Assembly (NCBI GenBank): GCA_038087875.1
Contig: CM075989.1
Location: 2,852,001-2,916,000, forward strand
Direction: 5' to 3'
Origin: Malacoraja senta
Lineage: Eukaryota
Length of the DNA: 64,000 nt
Shown here: one piece after another, positions 7,340 to 59,885 of the stretch
Layout of the letters: each line of letters starts with the position of its first letter
How positions within the stretch are numbered: the stretch's first letter is position 1
Program-made: the position numbers and the translations under genes
Notes under the pieces: generated by a model
The model's database searches: none
What the model was told of the DNA's origin: nothing
The model's input: the letters and a program-made list of their open reading frames with translations, nothing else

Positions 7340-7650
7340 GGCGGCACAGTGGCGCAGTGATGGAGTTGCTGCCTTACAGCGCCAGAGACTTGGGTTCAAT
7401 CCTGACTACGGGTGCTGTCTGTACGGAGTTTGTACGTTTTCCCCATGATCTGCGTGGGTTTTCTCAGGGTGCTCCGGTTTCCTCCCACACTCCAAAGACG
7501 TACAGGTTTGCAGGTTAATTGGCTTGGTAAAATTGTAAATTGTCCCTAGTGTGTGTAGGATAGTGTTAGTGTGTGGGGATCGCTCGTCGGTGCGGACTCG
7601 GTGGGCCGAAGGGGCCTGTTCCTGCGGTGTATCTCTAAACTAAACAAAAC
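7340..7650 (+). mobile_element. HE1/V-SINE-like SINE
   Basis: Full-length copy with A/B boxes, core and tail. Confidence 0.9.
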
Positions 7651-8157
7651 TGCTCAACTAGAAACCCTGACGAAACTCCATCCTTGCTACTATGTGTGGT
7701 CCAATCCTCCATAAGGCATGTTAACCAAAGTCAACATCGGTAAAATACATAGAAGCATTTCAGTTCTACCACACAGGATCCTCATCACATTAGAGCCAAG
7801 CAGTATGGGTGGCCTGTTGGGGGGAGTGTGCAGTGAGCATGGCTCAGACCAGATTTGTCAAAAAAAACAGCATGTTGATTTTCAATTAAAGTTGATACTA
7901 AGTGACTGCATATTGCACTGTTCATTGTTGTGTGTTGTATCCTGAGGCAGCACTTTACACATTTTTGCTCAGTGACATTTTGCGTGAATGAGTAAATATT
8001 GTGTGGGCTCCTTGCCAACCAGCCTGCTGGGGTTTGCATCCTCATTGCAGATGCACAAGTTCACCAAAGTAACTGCCTCAGATCTACAGCAACAAATTGC
8101 AGGGCTCGTGCCTTCTCTCCATGACGAAACTTCCTTGAAAGGACCAAGCTTTATTTT

Positions 8158-8351: not shown

Positions 8352-8421
8352 CCAAGCTTTATTTTGGCAGCTTGAAGCTTGGCTGTTCCCGTCATCTTGC
8401 TTAACTCAACTTGTTCCCCCG

Positions 8422-8732
8422 GTGGCACGGCAGCGCAGTGGTAGAGTTGCTGCCTTACAGCACCAGAGACCCCGATTCGATCCTCACTACGGATGCTGTC
8501 TGTACGGAGTTTGTATATGCTCCTCATGACCTGTGTGGGTTTTCTCCAGGATCTTTGGTTTCCTACCACACTCCAAAGACGTAAAGGTTTGTAGACTTAT
8601 TGACTTGGTAACATTGTAAATTGTCCCTAGTGTGTGTAGGATAGTGTTAATGTGTGGGATTCGCTGGTCGGCGCGGACTCGGTGAGCCGAAGGGCCTGTT
8701 TCCGTCCTCTATCTCTAAACAAAACTAAACTA
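8422..8732 (+). mobile_element. HE1/V-SINE-like SINE
   Basis: Full-length copy. Confidence 0.9.
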
Positions 8733-11127
8733 AGGTATGAATTTATTTTTTGCAAAGAGTCAATAATTGAGGTGATGGGGAAGGGATAACTTGGGTTGAT
8801 GTAAAGATAAATGAATATCCATTCTTATTGTACTGGCAAGTAATTTCTCCGAGTTGGAACATAATATGGAAAATGAGATCTGGATAGCAAGATGGAAAGT
8901 TGGAAAAGGGAAAAAGTCTAACTACTAAAAACAAGCGGGTTCGCAAAAGGAAAAAAAATATCTGAACCCAAAACAATACATCTTTCTTTCTTTCTTTTAA
9001 AATCTTTTTATTGTTTTGTTTCCAAAAAACAAAAACAAAACATAAAAAACAGAGCAAAAAGAATAATGATAAACATAACAATGGTATTGATACATAGGGA
9101 TCAGGATTACATTAATAACAGGTATAACCTAACATGAGACCAGTGTCAAAATACACATTGAATATAGACCTCTATGTAAATATAGTTAAATCTTTAAAAG
9201 AGAACTTATAAATGTAGAAAAAAACAAAGATAAAAAGACAAAAAGAAAAGGAAAATAGGAAAAAACAAAACCCCCCTAAACTAAAGAAAAAAAGAAAGGA
9301 AGAAAAAAATATATATATATATAAAAATAAAATAAATAAAAACAAAGCAAAGCAAAACAGAATCTGAACTGAGAATTTCAACAATTTAAGTCTGTTTGTC
9401 GTCAAGTCCGTTCCACCATATACAGGTAAAATAGTTTTTATAACGGTTAAAGAGGGAGCAATTTATGTTGTATGAAAGTGTTGAATAAAATTTCCCCAAG
9501 TCTTATCAAATTTAACCAAGGGTTCAACAATGTCACTTCTGATTTTTTCTAAATTTAAACATGATATCGTTTCAGAATACCACTGGAGTGTGGTCGGAGG
9601 GTTGGAGTCTTTCCATTTAAATAAAATAGATCTTCTGGCGATTAATGTGGTAAAAGCAATCAACCGATGGGCGGAGCGGGACAAATGAATAAAATCTAAC
9701 ATTGGTAGCCCAAAAATTGCAGTAATAGGATGAGGTTGTAAATCTATACCTAAGACTACAGAAATAGTATCAAAAATGTCTTTCCAATATTTTTCTAAAA
9801 GTGGGCAGGACCAAAACATATGGGTCAGTGAGGCCACTTCAGAGTTACATCTGTCACAGGTAGGATTTATATGACCATAAAAACGAGCCAACTTATCTTT
9901 TGACATATGAGCTCTGTGAACCACCTTGAATTGTATCAGAGCGTGTCTTGTACACATTGAAGAGGTATTGACTAATTGAAGAATCCTCTCCCATTTCTCT
10001 ATAGATAGAGAAATTTGGACTTCTCTTTCCCAGTCATTCTTAATTTTATCAAATATATCTATTTGTAATTTCAAAATCAACTCATAAATAGTCGTTATTA
10101 ATCCTTTCTTTTTTAAATTTTTTTATTAGAAGTATTGTACAATGCAGTGATCTCAAACAAACATAAAATTATAAATTTCTTGTACCACTTCTTATTTTAA
10201 ACTTTAATAAGAAAAAGGATAGAAAGGATAGAAAGAGTTAGCAGAATAGTAAGTGAGTGAGTGAAAGAGTGGTCCAGGGAAACCCATTGGGACCTAAACC
10301 ACAAGAAAGAGTTAAACAAAAAGAAAAAAACAAAAGAAGGAAAAAGAAAGAAAAGTAAAATAAGATAAGACAAGATAAAAGGGATGTACCTACATTTTTC
10401 CACATTTTTATCGTTGGCGTGGGAGCGTTTTTCCAGAATTTCAGTATAAGTTTTTTTGCCATTATTAAGCCATAATTAAGGAAGCTCTTTTAAAACGAAG
10501 TCAGCTCCAAACTGGCTTCGATTGTTCCAAAAATGATCAGTTCTGCATTCAGTTTTATTTTAAATAATTTCGTAAAAATTTCAAAGATTTCATTCCAAAA
10601 TTTTTGAATTTTTATACAAAAAACAAAAGAATCAGCTATAGTTGCTTCTTGGGTTAGACATTTATCACAGATAGAAGAGACATTTGGGTAAAATTTACTT
10701 ATTTTAGCTTTTGAGTAGTATAGTCTATGTAAAGTTTTAAATTGAATTAGAATGTGTCTTACATTAATCGAGCATTTATGCACATATAACAAGTGTTTAT
10801 CCCAACTCTCTTTCGAGATTTTTATAGCAAGTTCTTGTTCCCAGTCTCTTCTAATCCTATCAGATGATGGTATTTCTATATTTAGGATGGTATTATACAA
10901 GTATGATATTAAATTAGTTGATACCGCTTTTATATTCATTGCATCGTCTAATAGGTCTGGAGACATCTTTTGATATTCTTGTGTATATTTTTTCAAATAG
11001 TCACGGATTTAAAAATATTTAAAATATTGATTACTACTCAAGTTGTATTTAAGTTGTAGTTGGTGAAATGATTTTAAAAAAACTTCCATTATCATACATG
11101 TCTCCAAATGTTTTAATTCCTAATCTA

Positions 11128-25810: not shown

Positions 25811-26115
25811 TTAGTTTAGTTTCGTTTATTTCAGAGATACAGTGTGGAAACAGGCCCTTCGGCCCACCGAGTCCATGCCGACTAGTGATTCCCGCACACT
25901 ACACTATCCTACACACACTAGGGACAATTTACAATTATACAAGCCAATTCACCTACAAACCTGCACATCTTTGGAGTGTGGGAGGAGACGGGAGATCCTG
26001 GAGAAAGCCCACGCAGGTCACGGGGAGAACGTACAAACACCGTACAGGCAGCACCCTTAGTCAGGATCGAACCCGGGTCTTTGGCACCACAGCTGCAACT
26101 CTACTGCTGCGCCAC
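25811..26115 (-). mobile_element. HE1/V-SINE-like SINE
   Basis: Reverse complement of the family sequence. Confidence 0.85.
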
Positions 26116-37429: not shown

Positions 37430-37743
37430 GTGTCACGGTGGGCGCAGCAGGAGAGTTGCTGCCTCACAGCGCCAGAGACCCGGGTTCGAACCTGACTAGG
37501 GGTGCTATCTGTACGGAGTTTGTACGTTCTCCCCGTGACCTGCGTGGGTTTTCTCCGAGGGCTCCGGTTTCCTCCCACACTCCAAAGACGTACAGGTTTG
37601 TAGGTTAATTGGCTTTGGTAGAATAGTAAATTGTCCCTAGTGTGTGTAGGATAGTGTTAGTGTGTGGGGATCGCTGGTCGGCACGGACCCAGTGGGCCAA
37701 AGGGCCTGTTTCTGCGTTGTATCTCTAAACTAAACTAAACTAA
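37430..37743 (+). mobile_element. HE1/V-SINE-like SINE
   Basis: Family sequence. Confidence 0.85.
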
Positions 37744-40773: not shown

Positions 40774-41075
40774 AGGCACGGTGCTGCAGCAGTAGAGTTG
40801 CTGCCTTACAGGGCCAGAGACCCAGGTTCCATCCTGACTACAGGTGCTGTCTGTACGGAGTTTGTACGTTCTCCCCGTGATCACGTGGATTTTCCCCGGG
40901 TGCTCCGGTTTCCTCCCGCATTCCAAAGACGGCCAAATTTGTAGGTTAATTGGCTTTGGCAAAAACCGTAAATTGTCCTTAGTATGTAGGACAATGCTAG
41001 TGTACTGGGATCGCTGGTCGGCGCAGACTCGGTGGGCCGAAGGGCCTGTTTCCATGCTGTATCTCTAAGCTAAAC
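40774..41075 (+). mobile_element. HE1/V-SINE-like SINE
   Basis: Family sequence. Confidence 0.85.
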
Positions 41076-41159
41076 TGTGCAGTTGGAGTCTGCAGAGTTA
41101 AGGACAAGGGGCACAATCTAAAATCCGAAACAGGAGGAAGGATAGGAAAGGTTGAATAG

Positions 41160-41561
41160 GCTAAGGCTTTATTGCTTGGAGTGCAGGAGGATGAGGGGTG
41201 ATTTTATAGAGGTGTACAAGATCATGAGTGGAATAGATTGGGTAACCGCACAAGCTTTTGCCCAGAGTAGGGCAATCGAGAACCAGAGGACAAAGGTTTA
41301 ATGTGAACGGGAAAGATTTAATAGGAATCTGATGGGTGACATTTTTACACAAAGGGTGGTGGGTGTATGGAACATGCTGCTGGAGGGGGTAGTTGAGGCA
41401 GATACCATTACAATGTTTATCAAACCTTTAGACAGGTACATGGATCAGACAGGTTTAGAGGGATATGGCCCAAAAGCAACCAAGTGGGACTCGTGTAGAT
41501 GGGGTATGTTGGCCGTTGTGGGCAAGTTGAACCTAAGGGCCTGTTTCCACTGCATGACTCT
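41160..41561 (+). mobile_element. CR1 3' fragment
   Basis: 'IFTQRVVGVWNML...LDRYMD' and 3' tail abutting the HERO-like element. Confidence 0.85.
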
Positions 41562-41687
41562 GAATCAAATACACAGGACAAGATGTTAAGAAGTCCCTTG
41601 TGCCAATACGTGGGGAGCATTTCACGACATTCGTTGATTGTTGAGAGTGGTAGACGCTCAACATCGGGGGGGGGGGGGTAACCTTCA

Positions 41688-41830
41688 GGACAGTTGGGCA
41701 CAGGACACATCATCAGTAGTGTACCCTTGCATCACTGGGTGTTTCGGCCTTTTAACACTATACACCCTCCACAAGGGCGGCCCGCTGCAGGATGATCAAC
41801 CCTCAGCGCATGTCCCGTGTCAAACCGTCC
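41688..41830 (-). ncRNA. Permuted hammerhead-ribozyme-like structure, copy 1 (predicted)
   Basis: GGGUGU-A / UAGUGU ... GGCC-GAAACACCC ... ACACUA-CUGAUGA, closed by a 22-bp stem. Confidence 0.6.
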
Positions 41831-41837
41831 CAAAGAT

Positions 41838-44800
41838 TCACCCCGACATACTTGGGGCCCAGCATGGGTCTTTCCGCTTGAGCCAAATCCACCGGCTGCT
41901 TCTTTCAGCCGCCTCTGAGAGTGATCTTATGGTCTTCCGCAGAGCCTGACCGTGGATTCCAAGCTCCTTCAGCAGTCTGATGGTAGATGACGCAACAAAT
42001 CCTCTGCATCCCACTTCAACTGGATAGACTTTGGTGTTCCAGCCACGCTGCGTTGCCTCTGCTGCAAGCTCTGCGTAGCGCAGCTTCTTACGCTCATAGG
42101 CCTCCTCAACAGAGTTCTCCCATGGAACTGTGAGCTCTATGATGTAAGCAGTCTTCTGTGAAGGGGACCAGAACACCAAGTCTGGCCTGAGGGTGGTGGA
42201 AGCAATTTCAGGTGGAAAAATTAGTTGTCGGCCGATGTCCGCCAGCATCCTCCAGTCACGGGCCCTGCATTGGCTTCCTTCTTCTGATCTGGTGGAAGGA
42301 AGTTTAGAAGTTTTCTGTCCTTCTCGGACAAAGGTTATTACCCTTAGGGGAGGGTTGCTTGCTCTTGGAGGCAAGGAGTTGGCCGCACACCGCCTGTTCT
42401 CAAGGGCTGATGCCAGGCTTTTTAGTACCTGATTATGCCGCCACGTGTATCTCCCTTGCGTGAGGCTGGTCTTGCAGCCTACCATGATGTGTTTGAGGGT
42501 CGCTGGAGTTGGGCAGATGGCACAGGTTGGATCCTCGCCGTACCACTGATGGAGGTTCTTTGGTGATGGAAGCACGTCATATGTCGCTCTGATGATGAAG
42601 CTGATCTTGCTTGCTTCCATTTCCCATAGTTCTTTCCAGCTGATCTTCCTCCGCTCCACACCTTCCCACTGCATCCATTGCCCCTGTTTGGCAAGAGAGA
42701 CCGCCTTTGCACTTCTTGCGGCCTCCTCCTGTCGCCGCACCTCCTCAACCACCAACGTCCTCCGCTCTGATGTTGTGGCCTTTCGCCAAGTTGGTTTACT
42801 TGTCGTAAGGCCAAAGCCTCCTCTTCCCTGCTGGACTTGCCCCACTATGTCTTTGTGCCTCAGGGCTGATGAAGCTTGCTGTACTGCATCAGATGGTGTC
42901 CACTTCCGGCCAGTTGCTAGGGGCGGCGCAACAGCACTGATGATCTTGTCTCTAGAATCCCTCAGTGTCATCTGGAGTCTTACTTTAGAACACTTATATT
43001 CCTCTGTTAGACTAGTGAGAGGTAGTTCCAGGACCCCTTTGCCATAGAGGCCGATGTTAGTTAGACATCGTGGGACACCGAGCCATTTCTTCACGTATGA
43101 AGTTATGGTTCGCTCCATCTTCTCCACAGTTGTTATTGGGGCTTCATAAACGGTCAGTGGCCACATTGTCCGAGGAAGGAGTCCAAACTGTAGGCACCAG
43201 AGCTTCAGTTTCCCAGGCAGTAGGGTCTGATTGATGTTCTCCAGTCCATTGACAATTTCTTGCCTTAGTTGTTGCACCTGCTCTTTGTCCTTGAGACTTG
43301 CGTTATACCATCTTCCCAGGCTTTTAACTGGCTGCTCAGACACTGTTGGTATTGGGTCGTCACCAATACAGAACCTTGTGTCTCTAAGCACCCCCTTGAC
43401 TATGGAGATGCTTCGAGATTTACTTGGTTTGATTTTCATTCGGGCCCACTTGATGTTCTCCTGCAGCTTTCCAAGTAGCCGCTTGGTGCATGCTGCAGTA
43501 GTGGTTAGTGTTGTCATGTCGTCCATGTATGCCCTGATGGGTGGCAGACGGAGCCCAGCCCTGGTTCGTTCACCGCCCACCACCCATTTTGAGGCCCTGA
43601 TGATGACTTCCATGGCCATTGTAAAGGCCAAGGGTGAGACTGTGCAGCCTGCCATGATGCCTACTTCCAAGCGCTGCCATGTTGTACTGAAGTCAGCTGT
43701 TGTGAAGCACAGCTGCAGGTCTTGGTAATATTTCTTGACCAGTGTGGTGATGAGCTCTGGTACATGGAAAAAGGCAAAAGATTCCCAAAGGAGTTCATGG
43801 GGAACTGAACCAAATGCATTGGCCAGATCGAGGAAGATCACATGTAGGTCTCTCTTCTCCTTCTTAGCTGCTTGGATCTGGTGCCAGATCATGCTTGTAT
43901 GCTCCAAGCAGCCCGAAAATCCTGGAATTCCTGCTTTCTGTACAGATGTATCAATGTACTTGTTTGTTACCAGATAGGTGGACAGCCTTTGTGATACAAT
44001 GCTAAAAAAAGATTTTTCCCTCGACGTTGAGGAGACATATTGGCCGGAATTGGCTGATATCTGACGAATCCGTTTCTTTAGGTATTAGCACGCCGCCGGC
44101 CCTTCGCCAAGCCTTAGGTATTGTTTGCTTCTTCCACACCACCCTCATGAGCTTCCATAGAAAGCGTAACACATCTGGTGCGTTCTTATAGAGCTTGTAT
44201 GGTACTCCGTTTGGCCCCGGAGCTGATGCTGCTCTTGCTCGCCGGACCGTGTTCTCCACCTCTTTCCATCTCGGAGGGCTGGTGTCCATGTTGAATTCAG
44301 GTGGTTGAATAGGTGGGATGTCATGTGGGATGACCAACTGCTCATGCCTTTTCGTGTCTTTGTGGGCCTTTTCCAGGTGTTCCTCCAATTCCTGTTTTGA
44401 TGTTTTCAAAGTTCCACTTTTTTCCTTTGCGAAGAGGTCTTTGATGAACTTGAAAGGGTCTTTATAGAACCGTATTCTTGTGTGTTCTTTCTTCTTGCGA
44501 AGTTTCCTCAAGTTCTCTGCTTTTCGCAAGGTTGCCAATCGGTTCTTGATGTCCTCTTGGAGTAGCATGAGACCTTCTCTCTCTGCGTCAGTTGCTTTTT
44601 TCCATTGCTTTTTCAACTGTCTCCTCTCTCTGATTAGCCTCTCGATCTCCTGCTGCCTCCTGGACTTGATTGGTGTTGGTAATTTCTTTCCACCTCTCCC
44701 TTTACTCACCCCAAACCGTTCTTCTCCATAGCTGTAGATTGTGTTGCCCATCCTTTCAAGCTTTTCCACTGCTGTGCCCGTTTGTTGCTTCAAGATATGT

Positions 44801-46293: not shown

Positions 46294-47093
46294 CTAGACT
46301 AAGTGGGACCCGTTGGGTCCCAGCATCACACGGGACGGCTGGTCACCAACGCAGTATTCCACCACTCCACCAATTCCAATATTGCTCGCCAGTGGGGGGG
46401 GGAGGGGCTTTCTGTTGCGCTAGTATGGGTGTTGCAGCCACCTGACAACCAAAATTCATTTTGTGAACACAAACTTTTTTAAAAGGCGAGGCAAACAATT
46501 GGGCAGCAGCCACCTGACAACCACAATTCATTTTGTGAACACAAACTTTTTAAAAAGGCGAGGCAAACAATTGGGCAGCAGCCACCTGACAACCACAATT
46601 CATTTTGTGAACACAAACTTTTTAAAAAGGCGAGGCAAACAATTGGGCAGCAGCCACCTGACAACCACAATTCATTTTGTGAACACAAACTTTTTAAAAA
46701 GGCGAGGCAAACAATTGGGCAGCAGCCACTTTACAGACGCATCGAGGGGACTCACCGTGGAGTAGACGTGCGTTCAGTGTTATTCGCAGCTCTGAGAGCC
46801 GTGACCCTCTCACTTCCTGGGTCTGGAAGAGACTGAGTGAGGCACTACACTTCCGGGTTTTATAGTCCCTCCCCCCTGCCGCCAGCGGGGGCAGCAAAGA
46901 GAATGATGATTTTTAAAAAAACATTAATATCTCTCTGAATTTTCATCGATGGGAAAAAATCCTCTGGTCCCGGAAGGCGGAGGGGTCTCTGAGCGAGGTG
47001 GCCAAAAATGACAGCCGTAGGTGGTGGCGTTCTCTCGGAAATCGCAGTACAGCGAGTCAAAAGCAGTCAAGATCAGTCTTTTAGTAATATAGA
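46294..47093 (-). mobile_element. Non-autonomous Helitron
   Basis: Minus strand begins TC (TCTATATTACTAAAAG) and ends with hairpin GGGACCC-AAC-GGGTCCC then ACTTAGT-CTAG; sits between A and T with no TSD. Confidence 0.85.
46434..46728. repeat. 72-bp minisatellite x4 inside the Helitron
   Basis: Unit gcagccacctgacaaccacaattcattttgtgaacacaaac...aattgggca. Confidence 0.95.
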
Positions 47094-59460: not shown

Positions 59461-59580
59461 TCCCGATGACAGGAATGAAATGTGAGTGTGGCCAGGGTGA
59501 GTGTGGGTCTCTGATGATGCTGATTGCCGTTTTGAGCTTCCTATAGTTCACCGCTGATGGGGAGGTCAGTATCCATGATG

Positions 59581-59885
59581 TTTAGTTTAGTTTAGAGATA
59601 CAGCACGGAAACAGGCCCTTCGGCCCACCAAGACCGCACCGACCAGTGATCCCGCACACTAACGCTATCCTACACACACCAGGGACAAGCTTTACATTTA
59701 CACCAAGCCAATTAACCTACAAACCTGCACGTCTTTCGGGTGTGGGAGGAAACCGAAGATCTCGGAGAAAACTCACGCAGGTCACAGGGAGAACGTACAA
59801 ACTCCGTACAGACAGCGCCCGTAGTCAGGATTGAACCCGGGTCTCTGGCGCTGTGAGGCAGTAGTTCTACCACTATGCCACCGTG
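59581..59885 (-). mobile_element. HE1/V-SINE-like SINE (inside a decayed Rex1-like LINE spanning ~59460-60440)
   Basis: Reverse complement of the family sequence; flanks translate to 'LRELGLCTSLCKWTLDFL'. Confidence 0.8.

Follow-up and report, generated by a model that had tools for sequence, protein, structure and literature searches.

A hammerhead fold with an unlisted connectivity, predicted behind the coding region of a retrotransposon in Malacoraja senta

Introduction

No small ribozyme has been studied better than the hammerhead, and the catalogue of its possible topologies seemed complete, with three classic types and three non-circular types proposed in 2023. Can its core be assembled in a way that this list does not hold, and what would such an RNA do inside a retrotransposon? 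The question is raised by a domain of 143 nt on the minus strand of a 64,000-nucleotide stretch of Malacoraja senta DNA (GenBank assembly GCA_038087875.1, contig CM075989.1, positions 2,852,001 to 2,916,000 of the forward strand), which we call the window and whose first letter is position 1 of all coordinates given here. The domain (41830-41688) begins 7 nt after the stop codon TGA (41840-41838, minus strand) of a retrotransposon that lacks long terminal repeats (a non-LTR element). A first-pass annotation, made from the sequence alone, had described it as a set of hammerhead segments in a non-canonical order. Every segment that it listed, namely GGGUGU-A-UAGUGU, GGCC-GAA-ACACCC, ACACUA-CUGAUGA, an upstream GGCC, the helix CCCUUGU/GCAAGGG and a stem of 22 positions, was recovered at its place on the minus strand.

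The answer that emerges from comparing 56 distinct related sequences strongly supports the hammerhead reading of the fold, with regard to its core nucleotides, its stems I to III and its pseudoknots. Judged from sequence conservation and covariation, the domain can be taken as a selected hammerhead fold with a probability of about 0.9. It is a hammerhead fold with an unlisted connectivity in a new genetic setting; the order of its blocks, by itself, had already been published.

Architecture of the domain

RNA positions are numbered as p = 41841 minus the window position, and all features of the domain lie on the minus strand. The RNA opens with the 5′ strand of a closing helix, P0 (41830-41809), which pairs with 41709-41688; by our own count this helix has 22 positions with 2 mismatches and several G-U pairs, and it extends outward from a junction-proximal part of 11 bp (41819-41809, p22-32 with p132-142). 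It is followed by a hairpin, Pa (41808-41783, p33-58), which fills the interval between P0 and the 5′ strand of stem II with no gap; the minimum-energy fold contains both P0 and Pa. The 5′ strand of stem II, GGCC (41782-41779, p59-62, with G10.1 at 41782), pairs with p92-95, and next to it lies the 5′ strand of a further helix, Pb (41778-41770, p63-71), which pairs with 41731-41723 (p110-118) and contains the CCCUUGU/GCAAGGG pairing.

The segment with the cleavage site comes next. It consists of the 3′ strand of stem III, GGGUGU (41767-41762, p74-79, its last base being U16.1), which pairs with p99-104; of H17, here an A (41761, p80); and of the 3′ strand of stem I, UAGUGU (41760-41755, p81-86), which forms a pseudoknot with 41722-41717 (p119-124). 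Cleavage is predicted between 41761 and 41760. A linker from stem I to stem II, UAAAA (41754-41750), variable in length and sequence, leads to a second core segment (41749-41737) with the GGCC of the stem II 3′ strand, GAA (p96-98) and the ACACCC of the stem III 5′ strand. Beyond another linker stand the 3′ strand of Pb, UGCAAGGGU (41731-41723, the partner of 41778-41770), and the third core segment (41722-41710), made up of the stem I 5′ strand ACACUA and CUGAUGA (p125-131). The 3′ strand of P0 (41709-41688) begins right after CUGAUGA and completes the domain.

A stretch of 161 nt folds with an energy of -70.1 kcal/mol, compared with -50.9 +/- 4.3 in 200 dinucleotide shuffles, none of which was as good (z = -4.5). 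Rfam yielded no family at the gathering score across the whole window; at E values up to 10, its only match to 41400-42000 was a meaningless small nucleolar RNA, and its hammerhead covariance models found nothing there even at that threshold. The latter absence is expected, because these models encode the classic strand order. Just past the domain lies a run of 14 C (41665-41678, minus strand), where most of the gaps between copies are found and where two other organisms have other letters.

Conservation of the core and covariation of the helices

Distant relatives of the element were fetched as 80 loci on metagenome contigs, at 35-79% protein identity, through an alignment of the endonuclease region (A1); they represent 80 of 299 relatives confirmed by tblastn. 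A descriptor that required perfect helices and a fixed order of segments (stem III, U, H, stem I ... GAA, A, stem III ... stem I, CUGANGA; the S-G-C order explained below) matched 47 of the 80 loci on the coding strand, compared with one locus (2 matches) on the opposite strand and none in reversed sequence. A covariance model built from the nested helices only, without stems I or II and with the H17 column unconstrained, recognised the domain at 56 of the 80 loci, and also at two loci of a second family described below, at E values from 1.4e-27 to 0.0018. All of its matches are on the coding strand, at a median of 25.5 nt after the protein match. Among the 24 loci without a model match, 8 have at most 83 nt of 3′ flank, two more have some 140-150 nt, and two are matched by the descriptor.

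The core counts that follow refer to the 56 distinct sequences in the covariance-model alignment. GAAA is kept in 53 (two others read AAAA and one GAAU). CUGAnGA is intact in 51, where n is U in 29 sequences and otherwise C (10), A (9) or G (3). U16.1 persists in 54 and its pair with A15.1 in 53. The cleavage-site base H17 is C or U in 20 sequences each and A in the other 16, and it is never G. The five departures from CUGAnGA comprise one sequence with an insertion in the box and four sequences of one subgroup (L097, L098, L108 and L140) with U at position 3, two of them with G8 and two with A8. In active hammerheads C3 and G8 form a tertiary pair, and a change to U3-A8 is expected to preserve it; the U3/A8 changes probably go back to a single evolutionary event. 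Three sequences (L160, L165 and L164) retain their helices but no longer have the G, or the last A, of GAAA; they may be inactive copies.

The helices were assessed in two alignments. In a MAFFT alignment of 15 domains, made with no fitting to structure, 83.2% of cells are paired, compared with 60.3% in shuffles (0 of 500 reach the observed value) and 36-47% with slid partners. Stem I is 96.6% paired in this alignment, with changes on both sides of 6/6 pairs, stem III is 97.8% paired, and P0 is 95.2% paired with 11/11 pairs covarying. Across the 56 sequences the whole structure has 82.7% of its cells paired (54.7% in shuffles, again with 0 of 500 reaching this value, and 37-44% with slid partners). 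Stem I, which is absent from the covariance model, is 92.1% paired there and covaries at 6/6 pairs; stem III has 96% of its cells paired; P0 has 91%, with 11/11 proximal pairs covarying; and all 7 modelled pairs of Pb have changed on both sides. The linker between stems I and II measures 0-6 nt in fully parsed relatives, mostly 2-5. Taken together with stem II, which is treated in the next section, these comparisons show covariation in stems I, II and III, P0 and Pb. The substitution patterns indicate that selection has maintained helices and core bases alike, throughout a deep clade of elements as well as in their non-autonomous partner.

Two further observations come from the same loci. On a single metagenome contig of 9.1 kb, two clearly different members of the clade (L105 and L114) lie in the same orientation 3.7 kb apart, each with its own covarying domain. 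The loop of Pa (41794-41798 in the window) often reads UGAUC, or a near variant, in relatives that are otherwise diverged, and this recurrence suggests a conserved contact.

A predicted four-way junction within the core

Stem II needed separate treatment. Counted column by column it pairs poorly (71% in the MAFFT alignment and 67% in the 56-sequence alignment); such counting fails because the length of stem II varies, and a search with controls was therefore made in each sequence. The search looked for a helix that starts from the base before GAA and has its other strand upstream, 12-24 nt ahead of H17. In 50 of the 56 sequences it found 4 or more contiguous pairs beginning at 10.1-11.1, and in 42 at least 5; permutation gave 30% and 14% at these two thresholds, and the reversed strand gave 16/56 and 10/56. 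The helix is made of 37 distinct sequence pairs, for example GCUCC/GGAGC, GAUGA/UCAUC, GUCAAG/UUUGAC and GGGCUC/GAGCCC, and its closing pair is G10.1-C11.1 in 48 sequences and G-U in 6. These counts support the assignment of the upstream GGCC in the window as the partner strand of stem II. Only 6 of the 56 allow a pairing of 4 bp or more between the 3′ strand of stem II and the strand directly after CUGAnGA, which belongs to P0 instead. P0 had been considered as a candidate for stem II itself and was rejected, as its 5′ strand leads into the Pa hairpin and not into GAAA.

The junction is free of linkers in 30 of 37 strictly parsed sequences. P0 starts there from the first base after CUGAnGA, Pa starts at the base that follows the 5′ strand of P0 and is closed by its own first and last bases, and stem II begins at the next base. 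A small group of relatives, seen by eye, has a single G before P0, which would move the junction one pair outward. From these spacings P0, Pa and stem II are predicted to form a perfect four-way junction between A9 and G10.1. Its continuous strand runs from the 3′ side of stem II into G12-A13-A14, and its crossing strands link A9 to P0 and Pa to G10.1. What the first-pass annotation had entered as a caveat, that CUGAUGA is not contiguous with stem II, is the conserved and truly new feature of the domain.

The host retrotransposon and a non-autonomous partner

The full-length copy of the host element occupies 45510-41562 on the minus strand (3949 bp); its 3′ end reads ...GTATTTGATTC and has no poly(A). 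Upstream lies a 5′-truncated copy (46102-45511, minus strand), joined to the full copy head to tail. The truncated element contains a second copy of the whole domain (45781-45639, minus strand), with an identical 31-nt centre at 45718-45688; this centre occurs twice in the window, 3951 nt apart, where no occurrence is expected, and the repeat of 598 bp around the second domain copy has 98.8% identity.

The coding region (45072-41838, minus strand) encodes a reverse transcriptase (RT), a CCHC motif and a restriction-like endonuclease (RLE). It is divided here into two frames, 45072-44002 and 43907-41838. As the homologues have single open reading frames (ORFs) of about 1080-1180 aa, the window copy is probably defective. 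The ORF product matches the reverse-transcriptase domain RVT_1 with an E value of 3.7e-18, and the C-terminus of the protein carries the CCHC motif and RPD...E.T...K motifs of the PD-(D/E)xK type, which are invariant in alignment A1. On these protein motifs the host is classified as an RLE-type non-LTR retrotransposon. The order of RT, CCHC and PD-(D/E)xK defines the wider RLE group and not HERO, the family named in the first-pass annotation, specifically. Protein relatives occur in fishes, lamprey, sturgeon, amphioxus and a scallop, under generic names. A Penelope-like element was considered and rejected, the C-terminus being of the CCHC plus PD-(D/E)xK type and not GIY-YIG.

The genome of 1.94 Gb holds 991 candidates for the domain, with 100% identity in all 40 that were scored. 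The tandem junction has 635 candidates, with 100% identity over 120 nt in 40 of 40 scored places; partial head-to-tail tandems are therefore the usual form of the element. Arrays with successive units about 3950 nt apart also exist. At 29 other loci the element has the same 3′ end, ...GTATTTGATTC, again with no poly(A), followed by unrelated DNA in about 20, by a flank shared within two pairs of loci, and by the element's own 5′ end in 5.

A second family was sought in the same genome with a pattern that excluded the main family on the CUGAnGA side, and gave 392 matches compared with none for the reversed pattern. An earlier version of the pattern, with A at the cut site, had found no match in the genome because the second family has C there. 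The family is non-coding; its element measures about 765 bp, or about 290 bp in a short form that is common, and it too occurs in tandem, with pairs about 800-850 bp apart (30 loci, L031-L060). It has only the hammerhead-like domain in common with the autonomous element, of which it looks like a non-autonomous partner. Compared with the window domain, its H17 is C and not A (giving GUC) and the n of CUGAnGA is A and not U; the stem I pair A82-U123 has become U-A, four pairs of Pb are doubly compensated, and so are two pairs of Pa (G34-C57 to A-U and U36-A55 to C-G). Distal P0 is unrelated in sequence and retains its pairing. A search for a third family in the same genome returned only 12 point mutants.

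Near-identical sequence is present in public sequencing runs of several other organisms, four of which were compared with the window. Most of the differences preserve pairing (p31 U>C, p25 G>A, p15 G>A, p13 A>G, p24 C>U, p54 C>U and p57 C>U). Among related species neither linker has a constant length, and the UAAAA linker shows U87>G and deletions of 1 nt. Reads from a different element, later found to be the second family, had only the S and G blocks (defined below) in common with the window domain.

Two other kinds of repeat lie in the neighbourhood of the element. Tandem repeats with a period of 72 bp stand at 46434-46729, just past the 5′ end of the truncated upstream copy. At least 8 copies of another repeat, some 300 bp long, lie in the window at 78-89% identity (37434-37741, 40777-41076, 7345-7651, 8421-8734, 25816-26113, 59580-59861 and others), one of them about 500 bp downstream of the element.

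Relation to known ribozymes

The domain shares with the classic hammerheads of types I, II and III all conserved core nucleotides, three helices around the core and an NUH triplet. It differs from them in its strand order, in being pseudoknotted and in the broken link between CUGAnGA and stem II. A full-text literature search, with subscription journals outside its coverage, returned no account of a hammerhead whose chain is broken between CUGAnGA and stem II and no publication linking hammerheads to RLE-type or HERO elements; the match for 'hammerhead' together with 'restriction-like endonuclease' concerns R2 engineering, and the term 'type-SGC' is found only in Eckert et al. 2023.

That study (PMC10085705) treats the hammerhead as three blocks: S, with the cleavage site and strands of stems I and III; G, with GAAA and strands from stem II and from stem III; and C, with a stem I strand, CUGAnGA and a stem II strand. 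It reports a natural, cleaving type SGC, with a short linker between stems I and II and an extra helix that joins the far sides of these two stems. The order of blocks in the window domain is therefore not new, even though it differs from types I, II and III as the first-pass annotation had said: it is that of type SGC, extra helix included. The likeness to the published HRIMA-1 motif and its variants covers the cyclic order of S, G and C, the short linker, two core pseudoknots and similar helix lengths (PMC10085705). Pb is the counterpart of the stem I/II 'interaction' helix of type SGC; it lies directly 5′ of the stem I 5′ strand and 3′ of the stem II 5′ strand, which is where the extra helix of that type sits in the published motif. 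By our own parse of the oligonucleotides for SGC-1, a ribozyme that cleaves in experiments (PMC10085705), its stem III has 5 bp, stem I 5 bp, the linker 3 nt, stem II 5 bp and the extra helix about 7 bp; the corresponding values in the window are 6, 6, 5, 4 and 9.

The difference lies in where the chain is opened. In type SGC (PMC10085705), the 5′ strand of stem II and the strand of the extra helix stand right after CUGAnGA, at the 3′ end; in the window domain both stand 5′ of the cleavage-site block and are connected to CUGAnGA solely by way of P0 and Pa. Measured against that description, the window domain is type SGC circularly permuted and opened within 'block C', which its authors took as uninterruptible. 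Their scheme rests on the statement that in no known hammerhead alignment do more than 1-2 extra nt separate CUGAnGA from its stems (PMC10085705). The settings also differ: the type-SGC sequences there come from metatranscriptomes and occur beside hairpin ribozymes, whereas the window domain belongs to an animal retrotransposon.

The hammerheads of Penelope-like elements and retrozymes (on which see PMC7229834 and a bioRxiv preprint of 2026) are similar in two ways: a self-cleaving motif is placed in the terminal region of retroelements that typically form partial head-to-tail tandems, and non-autonomous partners carry it. They are type I or minimal hammerheads, in GIY-YIG elements or in non-coding retrozymes, and differ in this from the new topology within an RLE-type long interspersed element (LINE). 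Twister variants in non-LTR elements of Schistosoma (PMC8501958) offer a further likeness, a ribozyme fold that a non-LTR element carries and that has a part in its retrotransposition. Where the fold sits within the element is another matter, to which the window domain gives an answer of its own: it is in the 3′ untranslated region (3′ UTR), about 200 nt before the 3′ end, whereas the ribozymes of R2 and Schistosoma are at the 5′ end. R2 carries a 5′ ribozyme that resembles that of hepatitis delta virus (HDV) and releases the element RNA from longer transcripts. The window domain would act on a 5′ side only for the next unit of a tandem.

Cleavage, recognition or both

How such an RNA would work can be outlined from its predicted fold. 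Stem II would stack on the sheared layer of G12-A9 and A13-G8 as in other hammerheads, with P0 and Pa stacked beside it in the four-way junction, and the RNA would cut itself after H17 (41761/41760). Held together by P0, Pb, stem I and stem III, the two products could not separate, so that cleavage would likely be reversible or kept in check; it might be tightly regulated, for example by the RT, which leaves the ribosome a few bases upstream. In head-to-tail arrays, the upstream domain would free the downstream unit from read-through transcripts. The domain is probably also a recognition module of the RT, given its position next to the stop codon and its presence in a non-autonomous element as well. 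From what the sequences tell us, we lean towards a domain that cleaves itself, with distinctly less assurance than we have in its fold.

Several observations weigh against an active hammerhead. The step between A9 and G10.1, where the chain is interrupted, adjoins a metal-binding site. Pb is joined to stem III by only 2 and 5 nt, so that a sharp fold-back is needed, and stem II in the window has only 4 bp. G12 or A15.1 is missing in 3 of the 56 relatives and U3 stands in 4. Among the near relatives the outermost pair of stem II is lost in two species, G12 is altered in one contig with 10% divergence, and a Pb pair is disrupted in one organism by G117>A, barring a compensating change outside the rows displayed. 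LINEs and their short partners (SINEs) with common 3′ ends are a known pattern. An interruption at A9-G10.1 also has no known precedent; PMC10085705 reports a limit of 1-2 extra nt at this place.

The genomic ends point in the same direction. None of 30 upstream partial copies ends at the cut site (41760); their ends are scattered from 41632 to beyond 43110. None of the 30 second-family loci starts at the cut site, and a genome-wide pattern for copies starting exactly there gave 0, compared with 1 for a control boundary 10 nt away. It follows that the template RNA was intact at this point at every reverse transcription. Intact templates fit a recognition role, a slow or regulated ribozyme, or re-ligation, but not cleavage that is fast and irreversible. 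One poly(A) RNA-seq run yielded 14 reads with no pile-up of ends, too few to bear on cleavage.

The explanation that survives best beside an active hammerhead sees in the domain a non-catalytic module of the 3′ UTR, recognised by the element's RT for target-primed reverse transcription. The core would then be kept for its shape or for protein contacts, perhaps as an exapted former ribozyme, and would never cleave in vivo. Its place next to the coding region, in the window as in the relatives, is as this explanation would have it; so are the second family of about 765 bp and 290 bp, which shares nothing else with the autonomous element, and the fact that reverse transcription had run across the predicted cut site in all genomic copies examined. 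R2 protein, moreover, binds a pseudoknotted 3′ UTR RNA (PMC12222951), which points to a recognition role and counts against the hammerhead reading to that extent. Protein binding alone, however, predicts neither the free n in CUGAnGA nor a cut site without G in all 56 sequences, nor G10.1-C11.1 in 48 of them, and the occurrence of A8 alongside U3 and junction strands of exactly 1, 3 and 7 nt are likewise not predicted. We regard a purely non-catalytic role as possible but doubtful. It is important to add that recognition and catalysis are not mutually exclusive.

A second alternative takes the tandems as its starting point. The ribozyme would yield unit-length RNA from tandem transcripts, the ends would rejoin as a circle, and the circle would be reverse-transcribed in rolling fashion, making the element an autonomous counterpart of retrozymes. 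Head-to-tail partial tandems are indeed the rule, as seen from 635 junction and 991 domain candidates and the identity of 40 of 40 scored junctions, and arrays have their units about 3950 nt apart. After two cuts the unit ends would carry the halves of the domain, able to re-pair through P0, Pb and stems I to III, and a re-ligated template would leave no copy ending at the cut site, as is observed. Against this stand the fixed 5′ and 3′ termini and the unrelated flanks of solo copies; tandems with randomly truncated upstream copies are, in addition, equally well explained by the template jumping of RLE-type RTs. This route is, in our estimate, unlikely.

That an ordinary structured 3′ UTR resembles hammerhead motifs here by chance is excluded: with very many stretches of DNA scanned, an isolated CUGAUGA, a GAAA and two short helices are to be expected somewhere, and Rfam hammerhead models have no match here, but the descriptor's 47 of 80 sense-strand loci, compared with one locus on the opposite strand and none in reversed sequence, and an invariant core amid helices that all covary do not arise in this way.

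Implications

If the hammerhead reading holds, the catalytic core of this ribozyme tolerates a four-way junction at the metal-binding step between A9 and G10.1. Searches for hammerheads would then need wider descriptors, and engineers would gain a new attachment place for sensors.

A bolder extension, which we consider improbable, is that the domain represents a seventh natural connectivity of the hammerhead, 'impossible' under the scheme of three uninterruptible blocks, and that it is active as a reversible device for cutting and rejoining, such that a tandem transcript is cut twice and gives a circle, copied round by the element's own RT. A LINE clade of fishes, amphioxus and molluscs would then be an autonomous 'retrozyme', and the partial tandem at nearly every insertion would be explained.

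RLE-type LINEs have so far been known for ribozymes of the HDV-like kind; within the literature searched, the domain would be their first hammerhead. With its position in the 3′ UTR and its sharing with a non-autonomous partner, the domain makes testable the idea that one fold may serve both self-processing of the element RNA and its recognition by the reverse transcriptase.

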